Source: Escherichia phage vB_EcoM-720R8. From it: 34,824 nucleotides of DNA. The first letter of the stretch is position 1; each line of letters opens with the position of its first letter. The notes under the pieces are model-generated. The model saw only the letters and a program-made list of their open reading frames with translations, searched no databases and was not told the origin of the DNA. The translations under genes were made by a program, and so were the position numbers. This document shows, piece after piece, positions 14,152-28,583 of this stretch. The stretch lies in sequence record ON470606. One strand, 5' to 3'.

Positions 14152-14577
14152 TCATCTGCACATCCTCACCGGTAAAGCCGAGCAGAGGACGCGCCGGATA
14201 ATCAATTTTCTTACCGTCTTTCCGGGTTTCTTCCGACAGACCGAACTGATGCACGCTGGCGANNNNNNNNNNTTCGGTGACTTCCCGCCGTAAAACTCCA
14301 TTGATGCCTGTTCCGGGCTGGCGCGGATATGCAAAAAACGACTGGTGATAAGTTTCGCAAACATTTTTCGCTTAACACGACCGGTCTTTTTTCTGGCGCT
14401 CTGCTGCTGGCGTGGCGCGTAGGGTGTGCCGTCCGGGGCTTTCTGAGCCATCACCCGACGCTGCTGACTCTGCCGCAGACGTTTCGCCAGTTCGGCACTC
14501 AGTCGCCGACGCCCTGACGGTGACAGCGACTCAATCAGTCCGGTCAGCCGGTCTTCAAAACGCTTAAACTCATTCAT
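14152..14577 (-). CDS. S: Tail completion protein S (3' end uncertain because of the N-run at 14262..14271)
   Basis: N-terminal part MNEFKRFEDRLTGLIESLSP...; the frame after the 10-N gap cannot be verified, so the true stop may lie nearer 14125. Confidence 0.65.
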   Translation of the reverse strand: MNEFKRFEDRLTGLIESLSPSGRRRLSAELAKRLRQSQQRRVMAQKAPDGTPYAPRQQQSARKKTGRVKRKMFAKLITSRFLHIRASPEQASMEFYGGKSPXXXXSPACISSVCRKKPGKTVRKLIIRRVLCSALPVRMCR

Positions 14578-18338: not shown

Positions 18339-19402
18339 TTACGCTCCCGGCTCTGCGGTCGCCTTAGCCGGTGTGGAGAAATCACCGACCTTAATTTTTT
18401 CCACCAGACAACCGGCGGCGTAGTCTTCCACCACGTAATCAATGTTCATTGACTCGTAGTTCTCCACGCGGTCGAGTTTCGGGTTTTCCACAATCACGCG
18501 GCGATGGCTGTCATCCATGTAGTAGATGGACAGGTTTTCCAGCTTCGTGATGAGCATCGCATCCGCCGGGAAGTACGGGACGCGTACCGCCGGCAGGTTA
18601 CCGATGCGTTTCTGGCTGATGATGACGTCAGCGGCCAGCATCTCGCTGTTGTCCTGCTCCCTGTTGACGATGGGGAAATACTTGTCCGCCAGTAGCTGAC
18701 GCCCCACAATCACCACAAGGTCAGGGTCTTCCTGATACCACGGCTCAATCAGGTTGTTGGTCGCATCCATCACCAGTGCATCGAGGCTGGCATAATCACC
18801 ACCCTTACCCACGCGGATGACCTCAGAGGTCGTGTGACCTTCCTCGTCAGTAACCTTGCTCATCACGCGCGCCGGGGCTTCATTGCGGTATTTCTGCAGC
18901 CAGCCGACCGCCACATCCTGCAGCATCTGGTTACTGCTGCGGTCAGAGGNNNNNNNNNNCGTTAAAACCGGCCATGATGAAATCAAGGGACTGGCGTTTG
19001 ATAATGGCGTTACGGACACGGAGCTGGAAATCCTGATAACGCGCCCACAGGTCCAGCGTTTTGTAGCGGATATAAAAATCGAAGTTAATCTGGTCGCATT
19101 CGTACTTGTTTGACGCCAGCTTCGAGAAGTCCTTCGGCTGACGCTCGGTGCCACCGGCGGTGTCGGTGGTGCTGGCGATGGNNNNNNNNNNCGATGCCAA
19201 TTTTTTCCCCTTTCATTTCGCTGACCGGCACAATGTTGATGCGGGTCAGAAAGTCAGAGGACTCCTGCATGGTGTTCATCAGGGTCTGGGTGACCGACGG
19301 TTCAACGGTGAATTTTTTCGACACATCACCGGCGTCGATGCCGTTCAGTTCGGCAACACGGGACAGGTAAGCATTAAATTTAAAGCGGGTTTCCTGGCGC
19401 AT
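18339..19402 (-). CDS. N: Major capsid protein N (interrupted by two 10-N gaps at 18950..18959 and 19182..19191)
   Basis: N-terminal fragment (ORF 19085..19402, MRQETRFKFNAYLSRVAELNG...) and C-terminal fragment (ORF 18339..19154) are the same gene split by N-runs; span is not a multiple of 3, so gap lengths are inexact. Confidence 0.75.
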
Positions 19403-20315: not shown

Positions 20316-20488
20316 TGTCAGGAGTCCTGAATAGTGATTAGAGGAGTCACATGTCGGCATCAGTTTCCCGACGATGCGCATCCTCCGCCATCAGTCCCGG
20401 ATGGCTTATCACTGACACAACAGCACCTTAGCGAATCGCGGGGCGCGACTCAGTAGCCTTGCCGTGTATTCATCACGGCGAGGTATTC
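20316..20488. promoter_or_regulatory. Divergent late-promoter region between O (minus) and P (plus)
   Basis: Inferred from the divergent arrangement of the O and P operons as in P2; holds an imperfect TGG-N12-ACA dyad at 20402..20419. Promoters not mapped. Confidence 0.45.
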
Positions 20489-22261
20489 ATGACCATCACC
20501 ACAGACACCACTCTTTTACACGACCCGCGTCGTCAGGCGGCGCTGCTGTACTGGCAGGGGTTTTCCGTGCCGCAGATTGCCGCCATGTTGCAGATGAAAC
20601 GCCCGACGGTGCAGAGCTGGAAACAGCGCGACGGCTGGGACAGCGTTGCCCCCATCAGCCGTGTCGAAATGAGTCTGGAAGCGCGGCTGACCCAGCTCAT
20701 CATCAAACCGCAGAAAACCGGCGGTGACTTCAAGGAAATTGACCTGCTGGGACGCCAGATTGAACGACTGGCACGGGTAAACCGTTACAGTCAGACCGGC
20801 AACGAGGCAGACCTTAATCCGAACGTCGCTAACCGCAACAAAGGCGGGCGTCGCAAACCGAAAAAGAATTTTTTCAGTGACGAGGCCATCGAAAAGCTGG
20901 AGCAGATTTTCTTTGAGCAGTCTTTCGAATATCAGTTGCACTGGTATCGCGCCGGGCTTGAGCACCGCATCCGCGATATCCTGAAATCCCGCCAGATTGG
21001 CGCGACGTTTTATTTTTCCCGCGAGGCGCTGCTGCGCGCCCTGAAAACCGGCCATAACCAGATTTTTCTGTCGGCCAGTAAAACGCAGGCGTATGTGTTC
21101 CGCGAATACATCATCGCCTTTGCCCGGCTGGTTGACGTTGACCTGACCGGTGACCCGATTGTCCTGGGCAATAACGGCGCAAAACTGATTTTTCTCGGCA
21201 CCAACTCCAACACCGCGCAGAGCCATAACGGCGACCTGTACGTCGACGAGATTTTCTGGATCCCGAATTTTCAGGTACTGCGTAAGGTGGCATCAGGTAT
21301 GGCCTCACAGAGTCACCTGCGCTCGACCTATTTCTCCACCCCGTCCACGCTGGCGCACGACGCCTACCCGTTCTGGTCTGGTGAGCTGTTTAACCGGGGA
21401 CGCGCCAGCGCCGCTGAACGCGTGGAAATCGACGTCAGTCATAACGCCCTTGCCGGTGGGCTTCTCTGTGCGGACGGTCAGTGGCGGCAGATTGTCACCA
21501 TTGAGGACGCGCTGAAAGGCGGCTGCACGCTGTTCGACATTGAGCAGCTCAAACGTGAAAACAGCGCCGACGATTTTAAAAACCTGTTCATGTGTGAATT
21601 TGTTGACGACAAGGCGTCGGTGTTCCCGTTCGAGGAGCTGCAACGCTGCATGGTCGACACGCTGGAAGAATGGGAAGACTATGCGCCGTTTGCTGCCAAT
21701 CCGTTCGGCTCCCGCCCGGTATGGATTGGTTACGACCCGTCACACCGTGGCGACAGCGCCGGATGTGTGGTACTGGCACCGCCGGTGGTGGCCGGTGGCA
21801 AATTCAGAATACTTGAGCGTCACCAGTGGAAAGGCATGGACTTTGCCACTCAGGCGGAATCCATCCGCAAACTCACCGAAAAATACAACGTCGAATACAT
21901 CGGTATTGATGCCACCGGCCTCGGTGTCGGCGTGTTCCAGCTCGTGCGCTCGTTCTATCCCGCCGCGCGCGATATCCGCTACACGCCGGAAATGAAAACC
22001 GCAATGGTGCTCAAGGCAAAAGACGTTATCCGCCGTGGCTGTCTGGAATATGACGTCAGCGCCACCGACATCACCAGCTCGTTTATGGCTATCCGAAAGA
22101 CCATGACCAGCAGCGGACGCAGCGCCACCTATGAGGCCAGTCGCAGCGAGGAAGCCAGCCACGCCGACCTCGCCTGGGCGACCATGCACGCCCTGTTAAA
22201 TGAGCCACTCACCGCCGGTATCAGCACTCCGCTGACATCCACCATTCTGGAGTTTTACTGA
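20489..22261 (+). CDS. P: Terminase large (ATPase) subunit P
   Basis: 590-aa product from the ATG at 20489; the ORF-track entry starts at a TTG ten codons upstream. Stop overlaps the Q start (TGATG). Confidence 0.85.
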   Translation: MTITTDTTLLHDPRRQAALLYWQGFSVPQIAAMLQMKRPTVQSWKQRDGWDSVAPISRVEMSLEARLTQLIIKPQKTGGDFKEIDLLGRQIERLARVNRYSQTGNEADLNPNVANRNKGGRRKPKKNFFSDEAIEKLEQIFFEQSFEYQLHWYRAGLEHRIRDILKSRQIGATFYFSREALLRALKTGHNQIFLSASKTQAYVFREYIIAFARLVDVDLTGDPIVLGNNGAKLIFLGTNSNTAQSHNGDLYVDEIFWIPNFQVLRKVASGMASQSHLRSTYFSTPSTLAHDAYPFWSGELFNRGRASAAERVEIDVSHNALAGGLLCADGQWRQIVTIEDALKGGCTLFDIEQLKRENSADDFKNLFMCEFVDDKASVFPFEELQRCMVDTLEEWEDYAPFAANPFGSRPVWIGYDPSHRGDSAGCVVLAPPVVAGGKFRILERHQWKGMDFATQAESIRKLTEKYNVEYIGIDATGLGVGVFQLVRSFYPAARDIRYTPEMKTAMVLKAKDVIRRGCLEYDVSATDITSSFMAIRKTMTSSGRSATYEASRSEEASHADLAWATMHALLNEPLTAGISTPLTSTILEFY

Positions 22262-23295
22262 TGAGCAAGAAAAAAGGGAAAACACCGCGACCTGCGGCAA
22301 AAACAATCACCGCCAGCGCCCCGAAAATGGAGGCATTCACCTTTGGTGAGCCGGTGCCGGTACTCGACCGGCGTGACATTCTGGATTACGTCGAGTGCAT
22401 CAGTAACGGCAGATGGTATGAGCCACCGGTCAGCTTTACCGGTCTGGCAAAAAGCCTGCGTGCCGCCGTGCATCACAGCTCCCCGATTTACGTCAAACGC
22501 AATATTCTGGCCTCGACATTTATCCCGCATCCGTGGCTTTCCCAGCAGGATTTCAGCCGCTTTGTGCTGGATTTTCTGGTGTTCGGTAATGCGTTTCTGG
22601 AAAAGCGATACAGCACCACCGGTAAGGTCATCAGACTGGAAACCTCACCGGCCAAATATACCCGTCGTGGCGTGGAGGAGGATGTTTACTGGTGGGTGCC
22701 GTCCTTCAACGAGCCGACAGCCTTCGCGCCCGGCTCCGTGTTTCACCTGCTGGAGCCTGATATTAATCAGGAGCTGTACGGCCTGCCGGAATATCTCAGC
22801 GCCCTTAACTCTGCCTGGCTGAATGAGTCGGCCACGCTGTTCCGCCGCAAGTATTACGAAAACGGCGCTCATGCCGGATACATCATGTACGTCACCGATG
22901 CCGTGCAGGACCGCAACGATATCGAAATGCTTCGCGAAAACATGGTTAAGTCAAAAGGCCGCAATAACTTTAAAAATCTGTTTCTCTATGCCCCGCAGGG
23001 GAAAGCCGACGGCATTAAAATTATCCCGCTCAGTGAAGTGGCAACGAAGGACGATTTTTTTAATATCAAAAAAGCCAGCGCCGCTGACCTGCTGGACGCG
23101 CATCGCATCCCCTTTCAGTTGATGGGAGGCAAGCCGGAGAACGTCGGGTCGCTGGGTGATATTGAGAAAGTGGCAAAGGTCTTTGTCCGCAATGAGCTTA
23201 TCCCGTTACAGGACAGGATTCGGGAAATAAACGGCTGGCTCGGTCAGGAGGTCATCCGCTTTAAAAACTACTCACTGAACACTGACAACGACTGA
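22261..23295 (+). CDS. Q: Portal protein Q
   Basis: 344-aa ORF, ATG at 22261, translationally coupled to P. Confidence 0.9.
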   Translation: MSKKKGKTPRPAAKTITASAPKMEAFTFGEPVPVLDRRDILDYVECISNGRWYEPPVSFTGLAKSLRAAVHHSSPIYVKRNILASTFIPHPWLSQQDFSRFVLDFLVFGNAFLEKRYSTTGKVIRLETSPAKYTRRGVEEDVYWWVPSFNEPTAFAPGSVFHLLEPDINQELYGLPEYLSALNSAWLNESATLFRRKYYENGAHAGYIMYVTDAVQDRNDIEMLRENMVKSKGRNNFKNLFLYAPQGKADGIKIIPLSEVATKDDFFNIKKASAADLLDAHRIPFQLMGGKPENVGSLGDIEKVAKVFVRNELIPLQDRIREINGWLGQEVIRFKNYSLNTDND

Positions 23296-23483: not shown

Positions 23484-23751
23484 CGCCCGCTTCATGGGNN
23501 NNNNNNNNNNNNNNNNNNNNNNNNNNNNNNNNNNNNNNTGCAGTTACATAGATACTATGGATCCGCACCAGTCCTGACCGCACGCAGCCTGAACGGACAT
23601 CCCCGACGCATGCAAAAACATTCACTTGTTGCATGCAACGGCTTATTTAATGACAAATCAACTTAAATTTACAAAATCCACAGGTATGGATACTTTGCGA
23701 ACATGATAGGCTTACGAGAATTATCGTGCCTGTTTTTGAACGGAGAAAGTT

Positions 23752-24693
23752 ATGCAAGGTGAAGTTGACGAACAGCAACCAAATGAGATTATTTCGGAGT
23801 TTGGATACTATCCAGTAGAAGTTAACATTGAGACTGAACAATTTTCTTTGCGTACTTTACCCGGTCTTATTGAGAAAGTGGAACGTATTAACAATGATAA
23901 AAACGTTGTTAATGGTTGGATATACCCTGGGAATCGAAAGGTATATAACCTTAATGGTGACACATGCACAATGCCTTATAGTTACCGAGTATTCGGCATG
24001 CCCAAAACGCACACACTAAAATTAAAAAACACATCCTCGTTAGAAACTCTCAACTTTGTTGTGTGGTGCCTCTCTTTTTTCAAGGGTATAAGATTGACAA
24101 CCACTGACGCTGGTTTTCTTGATGCAACCACTATCAAGCCCACTAAGTTAACCGACTTTATTCTCGTTGGATGCTCTGAAAAAGAAGTAATAGAGCTAGC
24201 ACTTAACTATATAAAAGACAAACAAAAAGATGATCGCTCCATTAAAAGAATAGCTGCGGTGATACACTCCCTATTCCTGTCACATAACCCACTATACCTT
24301 TCCTTTGAGAAATTCCAGTATCTTTATATGGCTCTTGATTGCTGTTTTGCTATAGCATGGGATGAAAGGGATAAAGTCATTAAAGAGAAAAAACCATCTC
24401 ATCAAAATAGAGTATATTGGACGTGCGAAAATTACGGTGTAAAAATCCCGTCATGGGCAACAGATGAATGTAATGTTTCAGTTATACGCAATGATAATTT
24501 TCATGAAGCCATTTTTAATGGGCAACCGCTTGGTTTCTCTAGTATCAATGATTGTCAATATGGTAGCGATATATTGCTACAAATGCAGGCTCTGGTATGT
24601 CGTCTACTAGCGGCAATACTCTCTGTAAATGATCGTAAATATATCGCATCTACAATCAGCTCGATAGAGTACCATTCATTAAAATTAACTTAA
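23752..24693 (+). CDS. Hypothetical protein (313 aa), AT-rich accessory gene next to cos at the P2 old/tin hotspot; candidate defence or exclusion gene
   Basis: ATG at 23752 preceded by GGAG at 23742..23745; AT-rich; no Walker A motif, so not an OLD-family ATPase; no family recognised. Confidence 0.6.
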   Translation: MQGEVDEQQPNEIISEFGYYPVEVNIETEQFSLRTLPGLIEKVERINNDKNVVNGWIYPGNRKVYNLNGDTCTMPYSYRVFGMPKTHTLKLKNTSSLETLNFVVWCLSFFKGIRLTTTDAGFLDATTIKPTKLTDFILVGCSEKEVIELALNYIKDKQKDDRSIKRIAAVIHSLFLSHNPLYLSFEKFQYLYMALDCCFAIAWDERDKVIKEKKPSHQNRVYWTCENYGVKIPSWATDECNVSVIRNDNFHEAIFNGQPLGFSSINDCQYGSDILLQMQALVCRLLAAILSVNDRKYIASTISSIEYHSLKLT

Positions 24694-25012
24694 TGCTAAC
24701 GCCTCACTTCGCTCGTTGTTCAACCCCGCCAGCCTGAAAACAAGTTTCACGACTGGCGGCGTTCTCTATCGTCTGCGTGGTGGTGGCGCAACTCTGGACT
24801 GACCGATATAGTTAAACCGCCCGTAATTATCCCGGACTATTTCGGCACACCCGACCAGCTCGTCAGGCGTCAGATTTTCGTTGACCATAATCTGCTGTAA
24901 ACGGTGAACAATGGCCATCAACCTGACACTTTTGGTGTTATATGTGGTATCTCACATGAGATTACTGACCAAGGTGCATCTTGGTTGACTCATTTCATAT
25001 CCATCCACACCA

Positions 25013-25693
25013 CTACATCTTTATTGCATATTTATTAAAAGACGCCCAGTTCAATAAAAAAACATTATTCATATACCATTCAATATGATTTTTATTTTTA
25101 GATTGACTGTCAAGTAGCACACAAACATCAACCTGTTTATCAATCAATTTTGCAATATAAACCACAAACTCAACACTCGAATATCTCTTTGTGCCTAGCA
25201 AATATAATATTTCATCTGACAAATAATTAGACTCATGTGAAAAGACATTATCATTTAACAAAATCAACCCGCCAATCGAGTCATTTAAATCCAAAACATC
25301 CTTTGTTGCATTTATTTGCTTATTAGCTTCCTTAACTATCTTTGTTTTAATATTTTCATAAGCAAAGTTCATTATATCATTTCTAAATCGCTTTGAGTCT
25401 GGGTGTCTTTTTATCAACTCTTCTAAATGAATAGCACCATGCCAGTTTTTTGCAAGCCAACTATCAGTTTTAACCAACTCATTCAGTTTATCATTGACAT
25501 TCTTGACCCTGTCAGAAAAAAGACTTTTCATCTCCAAAATTATCTTTTTATTATCAATAAGATAATCTGCCATCTTGCGATTCTGACCATCCTTCATCCG
25601 GAACTTATGATGAATATCATCAATAGAAATCCCTTTTTCATGCTCAACAATGAATCTCTTAACATTGTTTTCTAATTCGCTGTATTGTTTCAT
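25013..25693 (-). CDS. Hypothetical protein (226 aa), AT-rich accessory gene at the P2 tin position; candidate defence or exclusion gene
   Basis: ATG at 25691..25693 with a purine-rich stretch upstream; 27 nt downstream of the DUF2158-like ORF on the same strand; no family recognised. Confidence 0.6.
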   Translation of the reverse strand: MKQYSELENNVKRFIVEHEKGISIDDIHHKFRMKDGQNRKMADYLIDNKKIILEMKSLFSDRVKNVNDKLNELVKTDSWLAKNWHGAIHLEELIKRHPDSKRFRNDIMNFAYENIKTKIVKEANKQINATKDVLDLNDSIGGLILLNDNVFSHESNYLSDEILYLLGTKRYSSVEFVVYIAKLIDKQVDVCVLLDSQSKNKNHIEWYMNNVFLLNWASFNKYAIKM

Positions 25694-25720
25694 ACTTTCC
25701 CCCGTGAATTTTATTATGAT

Positions 25721-25912
25721 TCACTTACGTGGACGACACAGCATACCACTTTTACTCTCTGCTATTTCCAGTAAATCAATGGAGAATGACTCCTCGTGCA
25801 AAACTCCTTCTTTATCATGCCAAATACATTTCGCATGAGTTTCAGTAGAGTCAGATACAGTCATTTTAAATCCACCGCTTTTCAAACAAACAACATCTGC
25901 AGGCTTTAACAT
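25721..25912 (-). CDS. Small DUF2158 / YodC-like protein (63 aa from the internal ATG)
   Basis: MLKPADVVCLKSGGFKMTVSDS...CIWHDKEG... fits the LKSGGP-MTV signature I associate with DUF2158; GGAGA sits 5 nt before the ATG at 25910..25912. The ORF-track entry runs to 25996. Confidence 0.55.
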   Translation of the reverse strand: MLKPADVVCLKSGGFKMTVSDSTETHAKCIWHDKEGVLHEESFSIDLLEIAESKSGMLCRPRK

Positions 25913-26038
25913 TTTTGTCTCCAACATTTTTAAGTAATGCATTATAACATAATGATATTGACGTAGATTTAATGCATGCAACCATATAAAAAACAATCAA
26001 TTACAGTCAAAACTACTTATACTGTATAGATGAGATCC

Positions 26039-28318
26039 TTACTCAAATTGATGCCAGAATCCCGACCACTCATCAGCGACCGGATACGTGAATTTTTTCC
26101 CGTCATAATTTACGGTCGCGCCACGCGCCAGCGCCTCAAGCTCCCATCGCTGCGGCCTGATACCGTTCTGAGCAAGGTCAACGCGGATACGGGTGATTTG
26201 CAATCGTTCAGACCGGGTCAGTCTGGCCGATGGCGCTATTTCATGTGGTTTTAACGGGCTTCCGTTTCTTTGCTGACGATTTGGTGTTTTCAGGCCGTGT
26301 TTTAATGCACCCCTGAGCGTCCTCACGACCTCCGGGTCATTCCATTCGATAACACCGTCATCAACCAGATTTAGCACTGCTGCGGCGTGTTCAGAAGGTG
26401 TGGGAGCCGGTAACGAAGTATCACCACCGGTGAGCTTTCCACAGTTATTGACAGGACTCCGAGGCGCGGCGATGCCGCTTTTTAAAGTCAAAGGCTCAAC
26501 GACCGGAACTTTCGGCACAATGCGCCAGTCCGTCGTTCTGGTGATATGAATATGACGCGCGCCGAGATGCGGCGCGTAAATGCCGACCACTCTCTCGACT
26601 TCTTCCTCGTACTCGTTAACGTCATCCGACGGGCTACGGGCGACTCTGACAGTCTGACAATCGCGCGGGACATTTGCCCCACCCTGCGCGCTGATATACA
26701 ACGCAAAATCACCACTGTCTGCGGCGGCGCGTGCAGCCTCGACGCGCTCGTCAAACTCATCAGCAATGCTGACGCCGCGCGGCAATTTGCGTAGTTCACG
26801 GTAAGCCCCCATTGTCGGCAGGCCAACCGTTTTAAATTGCGGGATGCGCCACGTTGACGCCCATGCGGTAACAGCCGCTGCAGTGTCTTTCAGCGGCCTG
26901 CCGGTGTCGTTATCGAGCTGACCATCCAGTGCATAGCCGTCGATGTTTTTTGAAATGTATTTCGCGATATATCCCGCAGCACCGCCCCGGTTAAGGTGTT
27001 TTGCCTGAAAACGGTTTCGCGCGGCTCCTCTTTCGTCACCATCCTCTTTGAGCGCATAGCGACGCATGATTTCGATAATCTGGTTACGCTGGCGTGGATT
27101 ACAAAAAAGCATCATATGCCAGTGCGGCGTTCCGTCGTGGTGTGGCTCGACGACACGCAAACCGTAGACCTGTAAATCATTATCCTTGAATGCCGTGCGC
27201 ATCAGGCTCCAGATGCGGCAGAGATAACGCTGCGCATCCTTTGGATTAAATGCCTCATCGTTCCAGCCGTGATTAAGCTGAACGGTTTTACTTTCGCCTT
27301 TTCTGACCTGACGAGTCGGGTGATACTTTGACGGCGCGGTCAGCGTGATAAACATCCCCACATCACCCTCTGCGGCGGCGTAACGCTCAATACCGGCAAT
27401 GGTGTTCATCAGCTCCATCCGGCGAATTTCAGGATTAGAAATACTGCCCATCACCTTACTGATAAGGTCGATGCGCTCGCCGGTTTCCCTGTTTTCAAGG
27501 TCACACGATTTAAGAAATTCCAGATTTGCCTGGCGGCGCGCACGCACATCACGAATGGCGTGTTTACTGGCATAAGGAGAACGGTCTTTATTGACCTCCC
27601 CGACAGCTATCAGTAACGCTTCATGCCAGCGCATACGCTGGCCTTTAAGCTGATGAGTCCACCACTCATCGTTAAACAGACGGGCAATGGCAGAATATGC
27701 CTGCCTCGTGGTCATCTGCCCTTTACGGTATTTTTTCCAGTAGAGCGGGGAAATATTGAAAGCACGTGCAGCGCCAGCAACATGACCATAGAGGTGAGCC
27801 TGCGCCTCATCCGTAAACAGCGATTCTTTTTCGCCATGCGCATCCACCCAGGCATCGCTGAGTTCCTCATACATCATGAAAAGCTGCGATGAGATACGGG
27901 CAGCAAACTTTTTCAGCTCCTTGTCATTCATTCCCGGCAGGCGCGCATAGTGGTCACGCTCTGCCAGAAACAGCAACGACGCGTCGGTGTTCATTTCATG
28001 GCGCTGATTCACGCGCTCAATGCGCGGCCATAAACGACGCTGAAAAGTGGATGTGAGGAAATAAAACCCGTGCACCGGGCTTTTATTGCGCCGGATGTAG
28101 TCATAGCGTGAAGTAAACAGCGAACGCAAAAAGTAAGGCAGGCGGTTAATCGTGGATAAAACACCTTGCACCTGACGCATCTCGTCACGTGTAAGGGGTC
28201 TTTCGCGCCCGACGGCCTCGCGTGGCGCGTTCCATGCATAAGCACCGGTAAACGCCTTACCGGTGCCTGCAGCAAATGCTGACGGAGGGACAAAACGCCC
28301 GGAGGCTTTAACGGCCAT
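26039..28318 (-). CDS. A: Replication initiation protein A (rolling-circle nickase)
   Basis: 759-aa product from the ATG at 28316..28318 (MAVKASGRFVPP...), which overlaps the upstream ORF stop; the ORF-track entry starts at a TTG 14 codons earlier. Confidence 0.85.
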   Translation of the reverse strand: MAVKASGRFVPPSAFAAGTGKAFTGAYAWNAPREAVGRERPLTRDEMRQVQGVLSTINRLPYFLRSLFTSRYDYIRRNKSPVHGFYFLTSTFQRRLWPRIERVNQRHEMNTDASLLFLAERDHYARLPGMNDKELKKFAARISSQLFMMYEELSDAWVDAHGEKESLFTDEAQAHLYGHVAGAARAFNISPLYWKKYRKGQMTTRQAYSAIARLFNDEWWTHQLKGQRMRWHEALLIAVGEVNKDRSPYASKHAIRDVRARRQANLEFLKSCDLENRETGERIDLISKVMGSISNPEIRRMELMNTIAGIERYAAAEGDVGMFITLTAPSKYHPTRQVRKGESKTVQLNHGWNDEAFNPKDAQRYLCRIWSLMRTAFKDNDLQVYGLRVVEPHHDGTPHWHMMLFCNPRQRNQIIEIMRRYALKEDGDERGAARNRFQAKHLNRGGAAGYIAKYISKNIDGYALDGQLDNDTGRPLKDTAAAVTAWASTWRIPQFKTVGLPTMGAYRELRKLPRGVSIADEFDERVEAARAAADSGDFALYISAQGGANVPRDCQTVRVARSPSDDVNEYEEEVERVVGIYAPHLGARHIHITRTTDWRIVPKVPVVEPLTLKSGIAAPRSPVNNCGKLTGGDTSLPAPTPSEHAAAVLNLVDDGVIEWNDPEVVRTLRGALKHGLKTPNRQQRNGSPLKPHEIAPSARLTRSERLQITRIRVDLAQNGIRPQRWELEALARGATVNYDGKKFTYPVADEWSGFWHQFE

Positions 28319-28583
28319 ATGAGCCAAAAACCTCTGAACAACGCTTGCTGAGTTGCTCAACCTGCGCGTTTAAATCAGCAAAAGACTTTGCGCTTCCGGT
28401 CAGAATATCGTGATGCATCAGGCCGGAAACGAGCTGGCTTAATTTCGGGTAATAACCAACCACCGCCAGCCATTCCTGACCGGCGTTTTTACCGCTTTCC
28501 GCTCTCTTTTTCTCGTGGAGAATAAACTGAAAGCTGTCACTGGTAACGACATAACGTTCGCCAATTTCAATACGAATACTCAT
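28308..28583 (-). CDS. Hypothetical early-operon protein (91 aa)
   Basis: ORF translationally coupled to A (stop overlaps the A ATG); sits where P2 has small early ORFs of unknown function. Confidence 0.6.
   Translation of the reverse strand: MSIRIEIGERYVVTSDSFQFILHEKKRAESGKNAGQEWLAVVGYYPKLSQLVSGLMHHDILTGSAKSFADLNAQVEQLSKRCSEVFGSYGR

Follow-up and report, generated by a model that had tools for sequence, protein, structure and literature searches.

In P2-like prophages, the interval bounded by the replication gene gpA and the portal gene gpQ is the classical tin/old locus of phage P2 and an experimentally supported hotspot of anti-phage cargo, in which 1,650 gene arrangements were counted in 18,150 Escherichia coli loci and whose tin and old genes were reported to exclude other phages (Rousset et al. 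2022, PMC9122126). We analysed a stretch of 34,824 nucleotides (nt) from Escherichia phage vB_EcoM-720R8 (sequence record ON470606), hereafter the window, in which all coordinates given below are positions, and examined a pair of genes that lies in this interval. The pair consists of a gene for a 63-amino-acid (aa) protein of the DUF2158/YodC family (25721-25912, minus strand) and of the open reading frame (ORF) ORF226 (226 aa, 25013-25693, minus strand), a predicted effector. We find that the two genes travel as one cassette, which we read, with a probability of roughly 45%, as a bicistronic P2-hotspot unit in which ORF226 would be a nuclease-like anti-phage effector and the DUF2158 protein an optional accessory or regulator. 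The tin and old genes of P2 (with orf91) are likewise prophage accessory genes and occupy the same position as the pair, between gpA and cos/gpQ, but have no sequence relationship to it. For P4-hotspot loci, from the same element family, protection was obtained with six of eight randomly chosen loci of unknown function.

The grouping of the two genes is not new. System 63 ('DUF2158') of Rousset et al. 2022 (Table S5B, PMC9122126), with 67 occurrences in E. coli P2 hotspots, comprises a protein2 identical to the 63-aa protein and a protein1 about 99% identical to ORF226, and Table S5A of the same study holds the arrangement 'DUF2158 + hypothetical + hypothetical'. Since Table S5B lists both proteins as one system, the two-gene grouping has been on record since 2022, and its function has not. 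The DNA of GenBank record AM157369 (ORF73, ORF226 and ORF313 of phage P2-EC67) is 98.7% identical to the window locus. Neither system 63 nor AM157369 gives a function, fold, promoter, nuclease-like motif, distribution beyond E. coli or solo relatives. The pair was not found in the supplementary files of Vassallo et al. 2022 that were searched, and a literature search returned no later paper mentioning the pair or system 63.

A further point of comparison is UG2 (DRT type 2; Mestre et al. 2022, PMC9226505). In two of its three variants, an adjacent gene encodes a protein that begins with a YodC (COG5475) domain, which in one case is joined to WYL. Because the reverse transcriptase and its non-coding RNA are sufficient for defence, the authors call the YodC genes accessory. 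Both there and at our locus, a YodC/DUF2158 (COG5475) domain gene stands beside the known or presumed defence effector in some variants only, and the effector is also found alone. The two cases differ in the effector, which is a reverse transcriptase with a non-coding RNA in UG2 and a nuclease-like protein here, and in the domain, which in UG2 forms the N-terminal part of larger proteins, whereas here it stands alone in 63 aa; the likeness is one of pattern. By this analogy, DUF2158/YodC could be a portable sensor or regulator barrel recruited independently to unrelated anti-phage effectors, ORF226 and the DRT2 reverse transcriptase, which we consider possible but less likely than not. If it were so, the pair would be a new two-gene anti-phage system in which a 63-aa protein gates a nuclease, and it would offer a first functional handle on yodC, a widespread family.

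Judged from their conservation, both genes are real and under purifying selection, with ratios of non-synonymous to synonymous substitution rates (dN/dS) against the Citrobacter homologues of 0.17-0.19 (small ORF) and 0.09 (ORF226), at dS 0.7-1.5. Both are annotated in RefSeq/PGAP and fall into PHROG families with no assigned function. The coordinates, the shared strand and the 27-nt gap described in an earlier note on this DNA were confirmed, and both genes start with ATG. The purine-rich ribosome-binding stretches that it had reported are GGAG, 8 nt upstream of the small-ORF ATG, and, for ORF226, a Shine-Dalgarno-like GGGGGAAAG read in the intercistronic spacer (25694-25720, minus strand), whose last base stands 1 nt before the ATG. 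Its assignment of the small ORF to DUF2158 also held, with a Pfam E-value of 4.7e-8, above the curated cut-off. The small gene starts further upstream in AM157369, giving 73 aa (ORF73), and its Citrobacter homologues have 62 aa; as these homologues are shorter, and as the 73-aa extension would overlap a conserved -10 element and meets an in-frame stop in Citrobacter, the 73-aa start is unlikely and the 63-aa form is preferred. The two ORFs share a reading frame, with one TGA and nine sense codons between them. In Citrobacter the spacer is 41-43 nt long, has GAGG before the ATG and leaves the genes in different frames, so that the shared frame is attributed to chance and not to programmed read-through, and a read-through fusion of the two ORFs was rejected.

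Upstream of the pair, conservation between E. coli and Citrobacter extends to the 126-nt spacer from gpA to the DUF2158 gene. This spacer holds an extended -10 promoter-like element, TGTTATAAT (25941-25949, minus strand), an exact TGNTATAAT match that precedes the start codon of the DUF2158 gene by 29 nt and that we take as the putative operon promoter; exact TGNTATAAT matches number three in the window, with 0.84 expected. The TG-n-TATAAT is kept in this spacer of the Citrobacter loci L010, L011 and L013, reading TGTTATAAT or TGATATAAT. The -35 region of the element is poor, and the site was missing from the output of a consensus promoter scan. In the 27-nt spacer the scan gave no terminator-like site, a promoter-like and a terminator-like match, both weak, are located within ORF226, and neither after ORF226 nor after gpA is there a convincing hairpin with a T-run for an intrinsic terminator, folding z-scores being unremarkable. 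The conservation of the promoter-like TG-n-TATAAT and of the Shine-Dalgarno sequences, together with the lack of a terminator-like site between the genes, suggests that the pair is a unit, and we infer a bicistronic transcript that starts from this putative extended -10 promoter. Another exact match to the extended -10, TGATATAAT, occurs inside ORF226 (25371-25379, minus strand) and is probably due to chance in AT-rich DNA.

Next, we examined whether the two genes occur together elsewhere, on which the earlier note had made the pairing depend. We observe this DUF2158 subfamily only directly upstream of ORF226 relatives that are at least 68% identical, in E. coli, Salmonella and Citrobacter. 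Across 5,426 complete E. coli genomes, the 1.1-kb block is present in 27, all 27 of which have both genes, and at megablast sensitivity no genome has either gene alone; in IMG/VR, the same 8 contigs hold both. These E. coli and IMG/VR copies are 98.7-100% identical and therefore count as one recent cassette. Diverged copies, from Citrobacter and from metagenomes, were obtained from a collection of 15 billion proteins. In a Citrobacter P2-like prophage (L010; P0018 and a 62-aa DUF2158 gene), ORF226 is 75% and DUF2158 76% identical to the window proteins, with corresponding values of 83% and 73-74% in L011 and L012, and of 83% (a 226-aa homologue) and 76% (P0029) in L013-L020. The pair P0014 and P0030 also falls within the 68-83% range of ORF226 identity, and, from their equal longest-contig sizes, P0015 and P0182 apparently share one 4,560-bp contig and P0017 and P0183 one of 2,021 bp. 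At the lower end of the range, a truncated contig with a 68% ORF226 homologue (L042, P0021) starts inside a DUF2158 gene, whose C-terminal part it retains (hidden Markov model (HMM) E-value 5.8e-9). The third hotspot gene varies beside the pair in at least five arrangements, namely ORF313 allele 1, ORF313 allele 2, a 250-aa gene, a DUF2188 gene or nothing; this neighbour has been replaced at least four times by recombination and the pair has never been split.

ORF226 belongs to no Pfam, NCBIfam or PADLOC family. When 1.84 billion representatives were searched exhaustively with HMMER, 181 relatives were returned at E <= 1e-3, mostly of 220-350 aa and some of 560-740 aa, and D43, E54, K56 and Q126 are invariant across the 55 that were aligned, at a mean column identity of 16%; in the group at 64-100% identity, the conserved residues are the same in 15 of 15. 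The AlphaFold model is alpha/beta (predicted local distance difference test (pLDDT) score 82.7), with D43 directly preceding strand 44-46 and E54-x-K56 in the next strand, 51-57, which puts a D...(D/E)-x-K motif on consecutive beta-strands. This hairpin placement makes ORF226 a candidate PD-(D/E)xK-type nuclease. The proteins tabulated for comparison are BsmI (9.1), N.BspD6I (7.2), the XisH-like protein 2okf (7.1), CdiA-CT toxins (6.0-6.7), NucC (6.4), and NgoMIV, FokI, NucS, Can2, PspGI and SdaI (5.5-5.8), while the weak Foldseek matches, among them Rai1, Cas4 and a cap-snatching endonuclease, include none that is significant. Compared with PD-(D/E)xK nucleases such as BsmI, N.BspD6I, CdiA-CT EC869, NucC and Cas4, ORF226 has no curated-family profile match (hhalign against Mrr_cat gives a probability of 0.2%, besides the lack of any Pfam or NCBIfam match) and its hairpin is separated from the following strand by a long helical insertion (residues 58-134). 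A PD-(D/E)xK-like nuclease is the best reading of ORF226, one that we place somewhat above even odds and do not regard as established.

Some of the longer relatives carry additional domains. An Mrr_cat match in four of the 55 relatives was considered as nuclease homology and rejected, as it lies in a separate N-terminal domain that is unrelated by hhalign, and we read it as a sign of fusion to a nuclease instead of homology. In these proteins (P0049, P0050, P0094 and P0147; 560-740 aa) the ORF226-like domain, at about residues 350-500, stands behind the N-terminal Mrr_cat; P0094 has a C-terminal SEC-C motif as well, and P0110 (520 aa) has a SEC-C motif and an ORF226-like domain at residues 133-276, with no Mrr_cat match. 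The Mrr_cat, ORF226-like and SEC-C proteins are an uncharacterised multidomain architecture. PADLOC matches to PDC-S12 and E2 in relatives were set aside as irrelevant, since they fall on the C-terminal ends (Pfam SEC-C), outside the ORF226-like domain.

The 63-aa protein scores 33.1 bits against Pfam DUF2158 (PF09926, COG5475; cut-off 22.3), and the match spans positions 4-48 of the 50 in the profile. Aligned with YodC (b1957) of E. coli K-12, from the same Pfam family, it shows 27% identity and 15 invariant columns, including G13-G14, C29, W31, D33 and G36, and V8, G14, M17, V19, C29, W31, D33 and E40 are invariant in 42 members of the family. The model is a five-stranded SH3/KOW-like beta-barrel (residues 7-50, pLDDT 82.9) with a basic, low-confidence C-terminal tail, so that the small ORF has both the modelled fold and the conserved core of the YodC family. 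The yodC gene differs in being a stand-alone chromosomal gene, between dgcQ and yedI, and in encoding an acidic C-terminal tail in place of the basic one; YodC has been described as a sigma-S-dependent small protein, and on the family as a whole a literature search found almost nothing. Sequence searches of the PDB gave no match for either protein of the pair. Searched against 50,697 phage records, the small ORF has a single match at E <= 1e-3, P2-EC67 (AM157369, 2.5 kb), and P2 itself and other P2-like phage records have none; the small ORF is therefore not a P2 backbone gene found with many neighbours, the outcome that the earlier note had named as speaking against a pair. For ORF226, too, the only matches among phage records at E <= 1e-2 are to P2-EC67. 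DUF2158-like small genes of 37-43% identity (E 2e-3 to 5e-2; L047, 2504-2668, and L046, 2977-3168) occur in virulent phAPEC8-like coliphages, in arrays of small genes with no assigned function, and in Aeromonas phage vB_AsaM-56, upstream of the structural genes.

Upon searching the sequence available around each ORF226 relative for DUF2158 genes (tblastn and HMM scans), we found relatives that stand without one, on plasmids, in prophages and in islands. These are a 67% relative (L041); a 64% relative downstream of a DUF559/MTES_1575 endonuclease gene (L043); a 64% relative of 240 aa on contigs of Pantoea ananatis that also carry IncFII repA and relaxase genes (L004-L009); a 41% relative in another prophage (L021, 3327-5539), 33 nt downstream of a CI-type repressor (HTH_3 and Peptidase_S24) and convergent with a DUF4238 gene, a typical position of immunity-region cargo; and 28-31% relatives (L037-L039 and L049). 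Other solo contexts, of a defence type like those beside the DUF559 endonuclease and after the CI repressor, are the vicinity of an NACHT/NB-ARC gene and an island with a LEM-3_GIY-YIG gene, DUF4145 and a faint Mrr_cat match. A DUF4238 protein has been validated against T7 (Rousset et al. 2022, PMC9122126). The upstream neighbours of the solo relatives are mutually unrelated, and a 128-aa protein proposed as the common upstream partner of two remote relatives was rejected because the two proteins are themselves unrelated. The Pantoea relative has a 14-aa C-terminal extension and lies between a PLDc_2 (Nuc-like) gene next to the IncFII repA on one side and a Macro-domain variable region on the other. 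A tblastn search with ORF226 had no match among PLSDB plasmids, and scans of species-representative genomes returned nothing useful.

Taken together, these findings sustain in part the proposal in the earlier note that the genes form a functional pair: the pair does travel as one cassette while its neighbours vary, yet the association goes back to one acquisition event and relatives of ORF226 occur alone. Several observations weigh against a nuclease-like effector with a DUF2158 accessory. The ORF226 relatives at 67%, 64%, 41% and 28-31% identity keep the motif with no DUF2158 gene beside them, and DUF2158 proteins are also encoded by chromosomal yodC and by virulent-phage genes with unrelated neighbours. 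In a neighbour-joining tree, all DUF2158-linked ORF226 genes form one clade with the unlinked relatives outside it, so that the association arose once, and Citrobacter gpA, 75% identical in aa to the window gpA, is as diverged as the cargo, so that linked vertical inheritance explains much of the co-occurrence. Additionally, neither protein, nor ORF313, has a match in PADLOC-DB v2.0.0, and Rousset et al. 2022 (PMC9122126) did not include the pair in the systems that they cloned. A DUF2158 accessory would be dispensable for the ORF226 family, most members of which do without one.

In favour of the bicistronic effector reading are the position of the pair in the hotspot, the linkage of the two genes, their conserved expression signals, the earlier listing of both proteins as one system and the UG2/DRT2 precedent for a YodC-type accessory. 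The effector role of ORF226 is favoured by the invariant D...ExK on a predicted hairpin, by the weak Foldseek matches, by the fusion behind Mrr_cat in longer relatives and by the defence-type surroundings of solo relatives. Under this reading, transcription of the cassette would begin at an extended -10 promoter of its own that closely follows gpA. Going by motif and fold, the D43/E54/K56 site of ORF226 might cut the nucleic acid of a superinfecting phage, or that of the host in an abortive response. The 63-aa DUF2158 barrel might bind ORF226, or a nucleic-acid or phage ligand, and thereby restrain, license or tune the effector, and the likely role of the cassette would be phage exclusion.

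The strongest competing explanation, which we regard as possible and less likely than the effector cassette, is that the two are unrelated cargo genes (morons) with independent functions, inherited as one block since the ancestor shared by the P2-like phages of E. coli, Salmonella and Citrobacter. It would account for the origin of the association in a single clade, for a backbone gpA as diverged as the cargo, and for the existence of ORF226 relatives alone and of DUF2158 in yodC and virulent phages without ORF226. It sits less easily with the very fast turnover of the hotspot (1,650 arrangements in 18,150 loci), in which recombination exchanged the adjacent gene four times or more and the pair stayed together each time, with a DUF2158 subfamily that is never seen with any other neighbour, and with the shared upstream promoter-like element, the tight spacing and the lack of a terminator-like site between the genes.

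Considerably less probable is that DUF2158 serves the phage, as a host-takeover, counter-defence or replication-associated factor at the end of the early gpA operon, and that ORF226 is an independent defence gene. The small gene does follow gpA directly on the same strand, its weak relatives (37-43% identity) are found in virulent phAPEC8-like and Aeromonas phages, and phrog_3261 is a phage family. However, its absence from P2 itself and from all other P2-like records at E <= 1e-3 means that the P2 life cycle can proceed without it, its own promoter-like element is conserved and separate from the early operon, and in this subfamily it never occurs without ORF226. An equally improbable toxin-antitoxin or addiction pair, with ORF226 as a toxic nuclease and the small DUF2158 protein as an antitoxin or immunity protein stabilising the prophage, has in its favour the order of a small gene first and a larger nuclease-like gene second at close spacing, as in type II toxin-antitoxin operons, but a strict relation of this kind is made less likely by the viability of ORF226 relatives without DUF2158 (those at 64-67% identity have the same invariant residues and no DUF2158 gene in the sequence available around them, which is not expected for an intrinsically toxic protein), by an SH3/KOW-like barrel that lacks the helix-turn-helix, ribbon-helix-helix or AbrB fold of type II antitoxins, and by the lack of any match to a PADLOC or Pfam toxin family.

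The preferred reading, a bicistronic cassette with a nuclease-like effector, thus makes the pair a plausible candidate for prophage defence, though an ordinary one whose interest is modest. If the cassette protects, it would be one more small prophage-borne defence system, it would bring in a new nuclease-like effector family with about 180 representative clusters in public data, and it would provide a role for DUF2158/YodC, a family of small proteins with no known function that is represented in E. coli K-12. If inactive, this cassette of about 1.1 kb would be one of many uncharacterised P2 hotspot arrangements.

Finally, we considered the surroundings of the pair. The window is a P2-like prophage, in which the terminase gene gpP (20459-22261, plus strand) and the portal gene gpQ (22261-23295, plus strand; RefSeq annotation), one anchor of the hotspot, face the replication endonuclease gene gpA (26039-28360, minus strand), the upstream anchor, which was identified from RefSeq (a 99.8% identical locus) and from Pfam Phage_GPA on homologues. 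Between gpQ and gpA, the GC profile drops from about 52-59% to 30-39%, and this AT-rich island holds four ORFs, namely ORF313, a 51-aa ORF, ORF226 and the 63-aa ORF; by its position between gpA and gpQ of a P2-like prophage, the pair is hotspot cargo. The AT-rich cassette with the pair extends from the gpA stop codon to a linker common to other P2 hotspots (24954-26038, from the GC profile). The flanking segment 24696-24953 is found in 380 E. coli genomes beside other cargo, compared with 27 genomes for the pair, which places the cassette boundary there. The 51-aa ORF (24766-24921, minus strand), which lies outside the module, covers positions 18-69 of the 69 of the phrog_11386 profile and is a 5'-truncated gene remnant; intact 68-69-aa versions lie downstream of gpA, after at least one small gene, in other P2-like prophages. 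Its RefSeq name, 'meiotically up-regulated 80 protein', looks like a misleading automatic name.

ORF313 (23752-24693, plus strand; phrog_5937) is a separate convergent cargo module whose function is not known. It has neither a Pfam nor a PADLOC match and is missing from all Citrobacter versions of the locus. Two alleles exist, with about 82% aa identity, each of which adjoins copies of the pair that are 98.7-100% identical. In E. coli strain H9 (L003, 2761-4300), the hotspot also has an IS1A element and a gene for a 263-aa hypothetical protein between the portal gene and ORF313. The window contains five runs of N, at 1957-1970, 14263-14272, 18950-18959, 19182-19191 and 23499-23538, and the last of these, 40 bases long and situated between the portal gene and ORF313, lies where, from the established organisation of the P2 genome, we presume the cos site to be.

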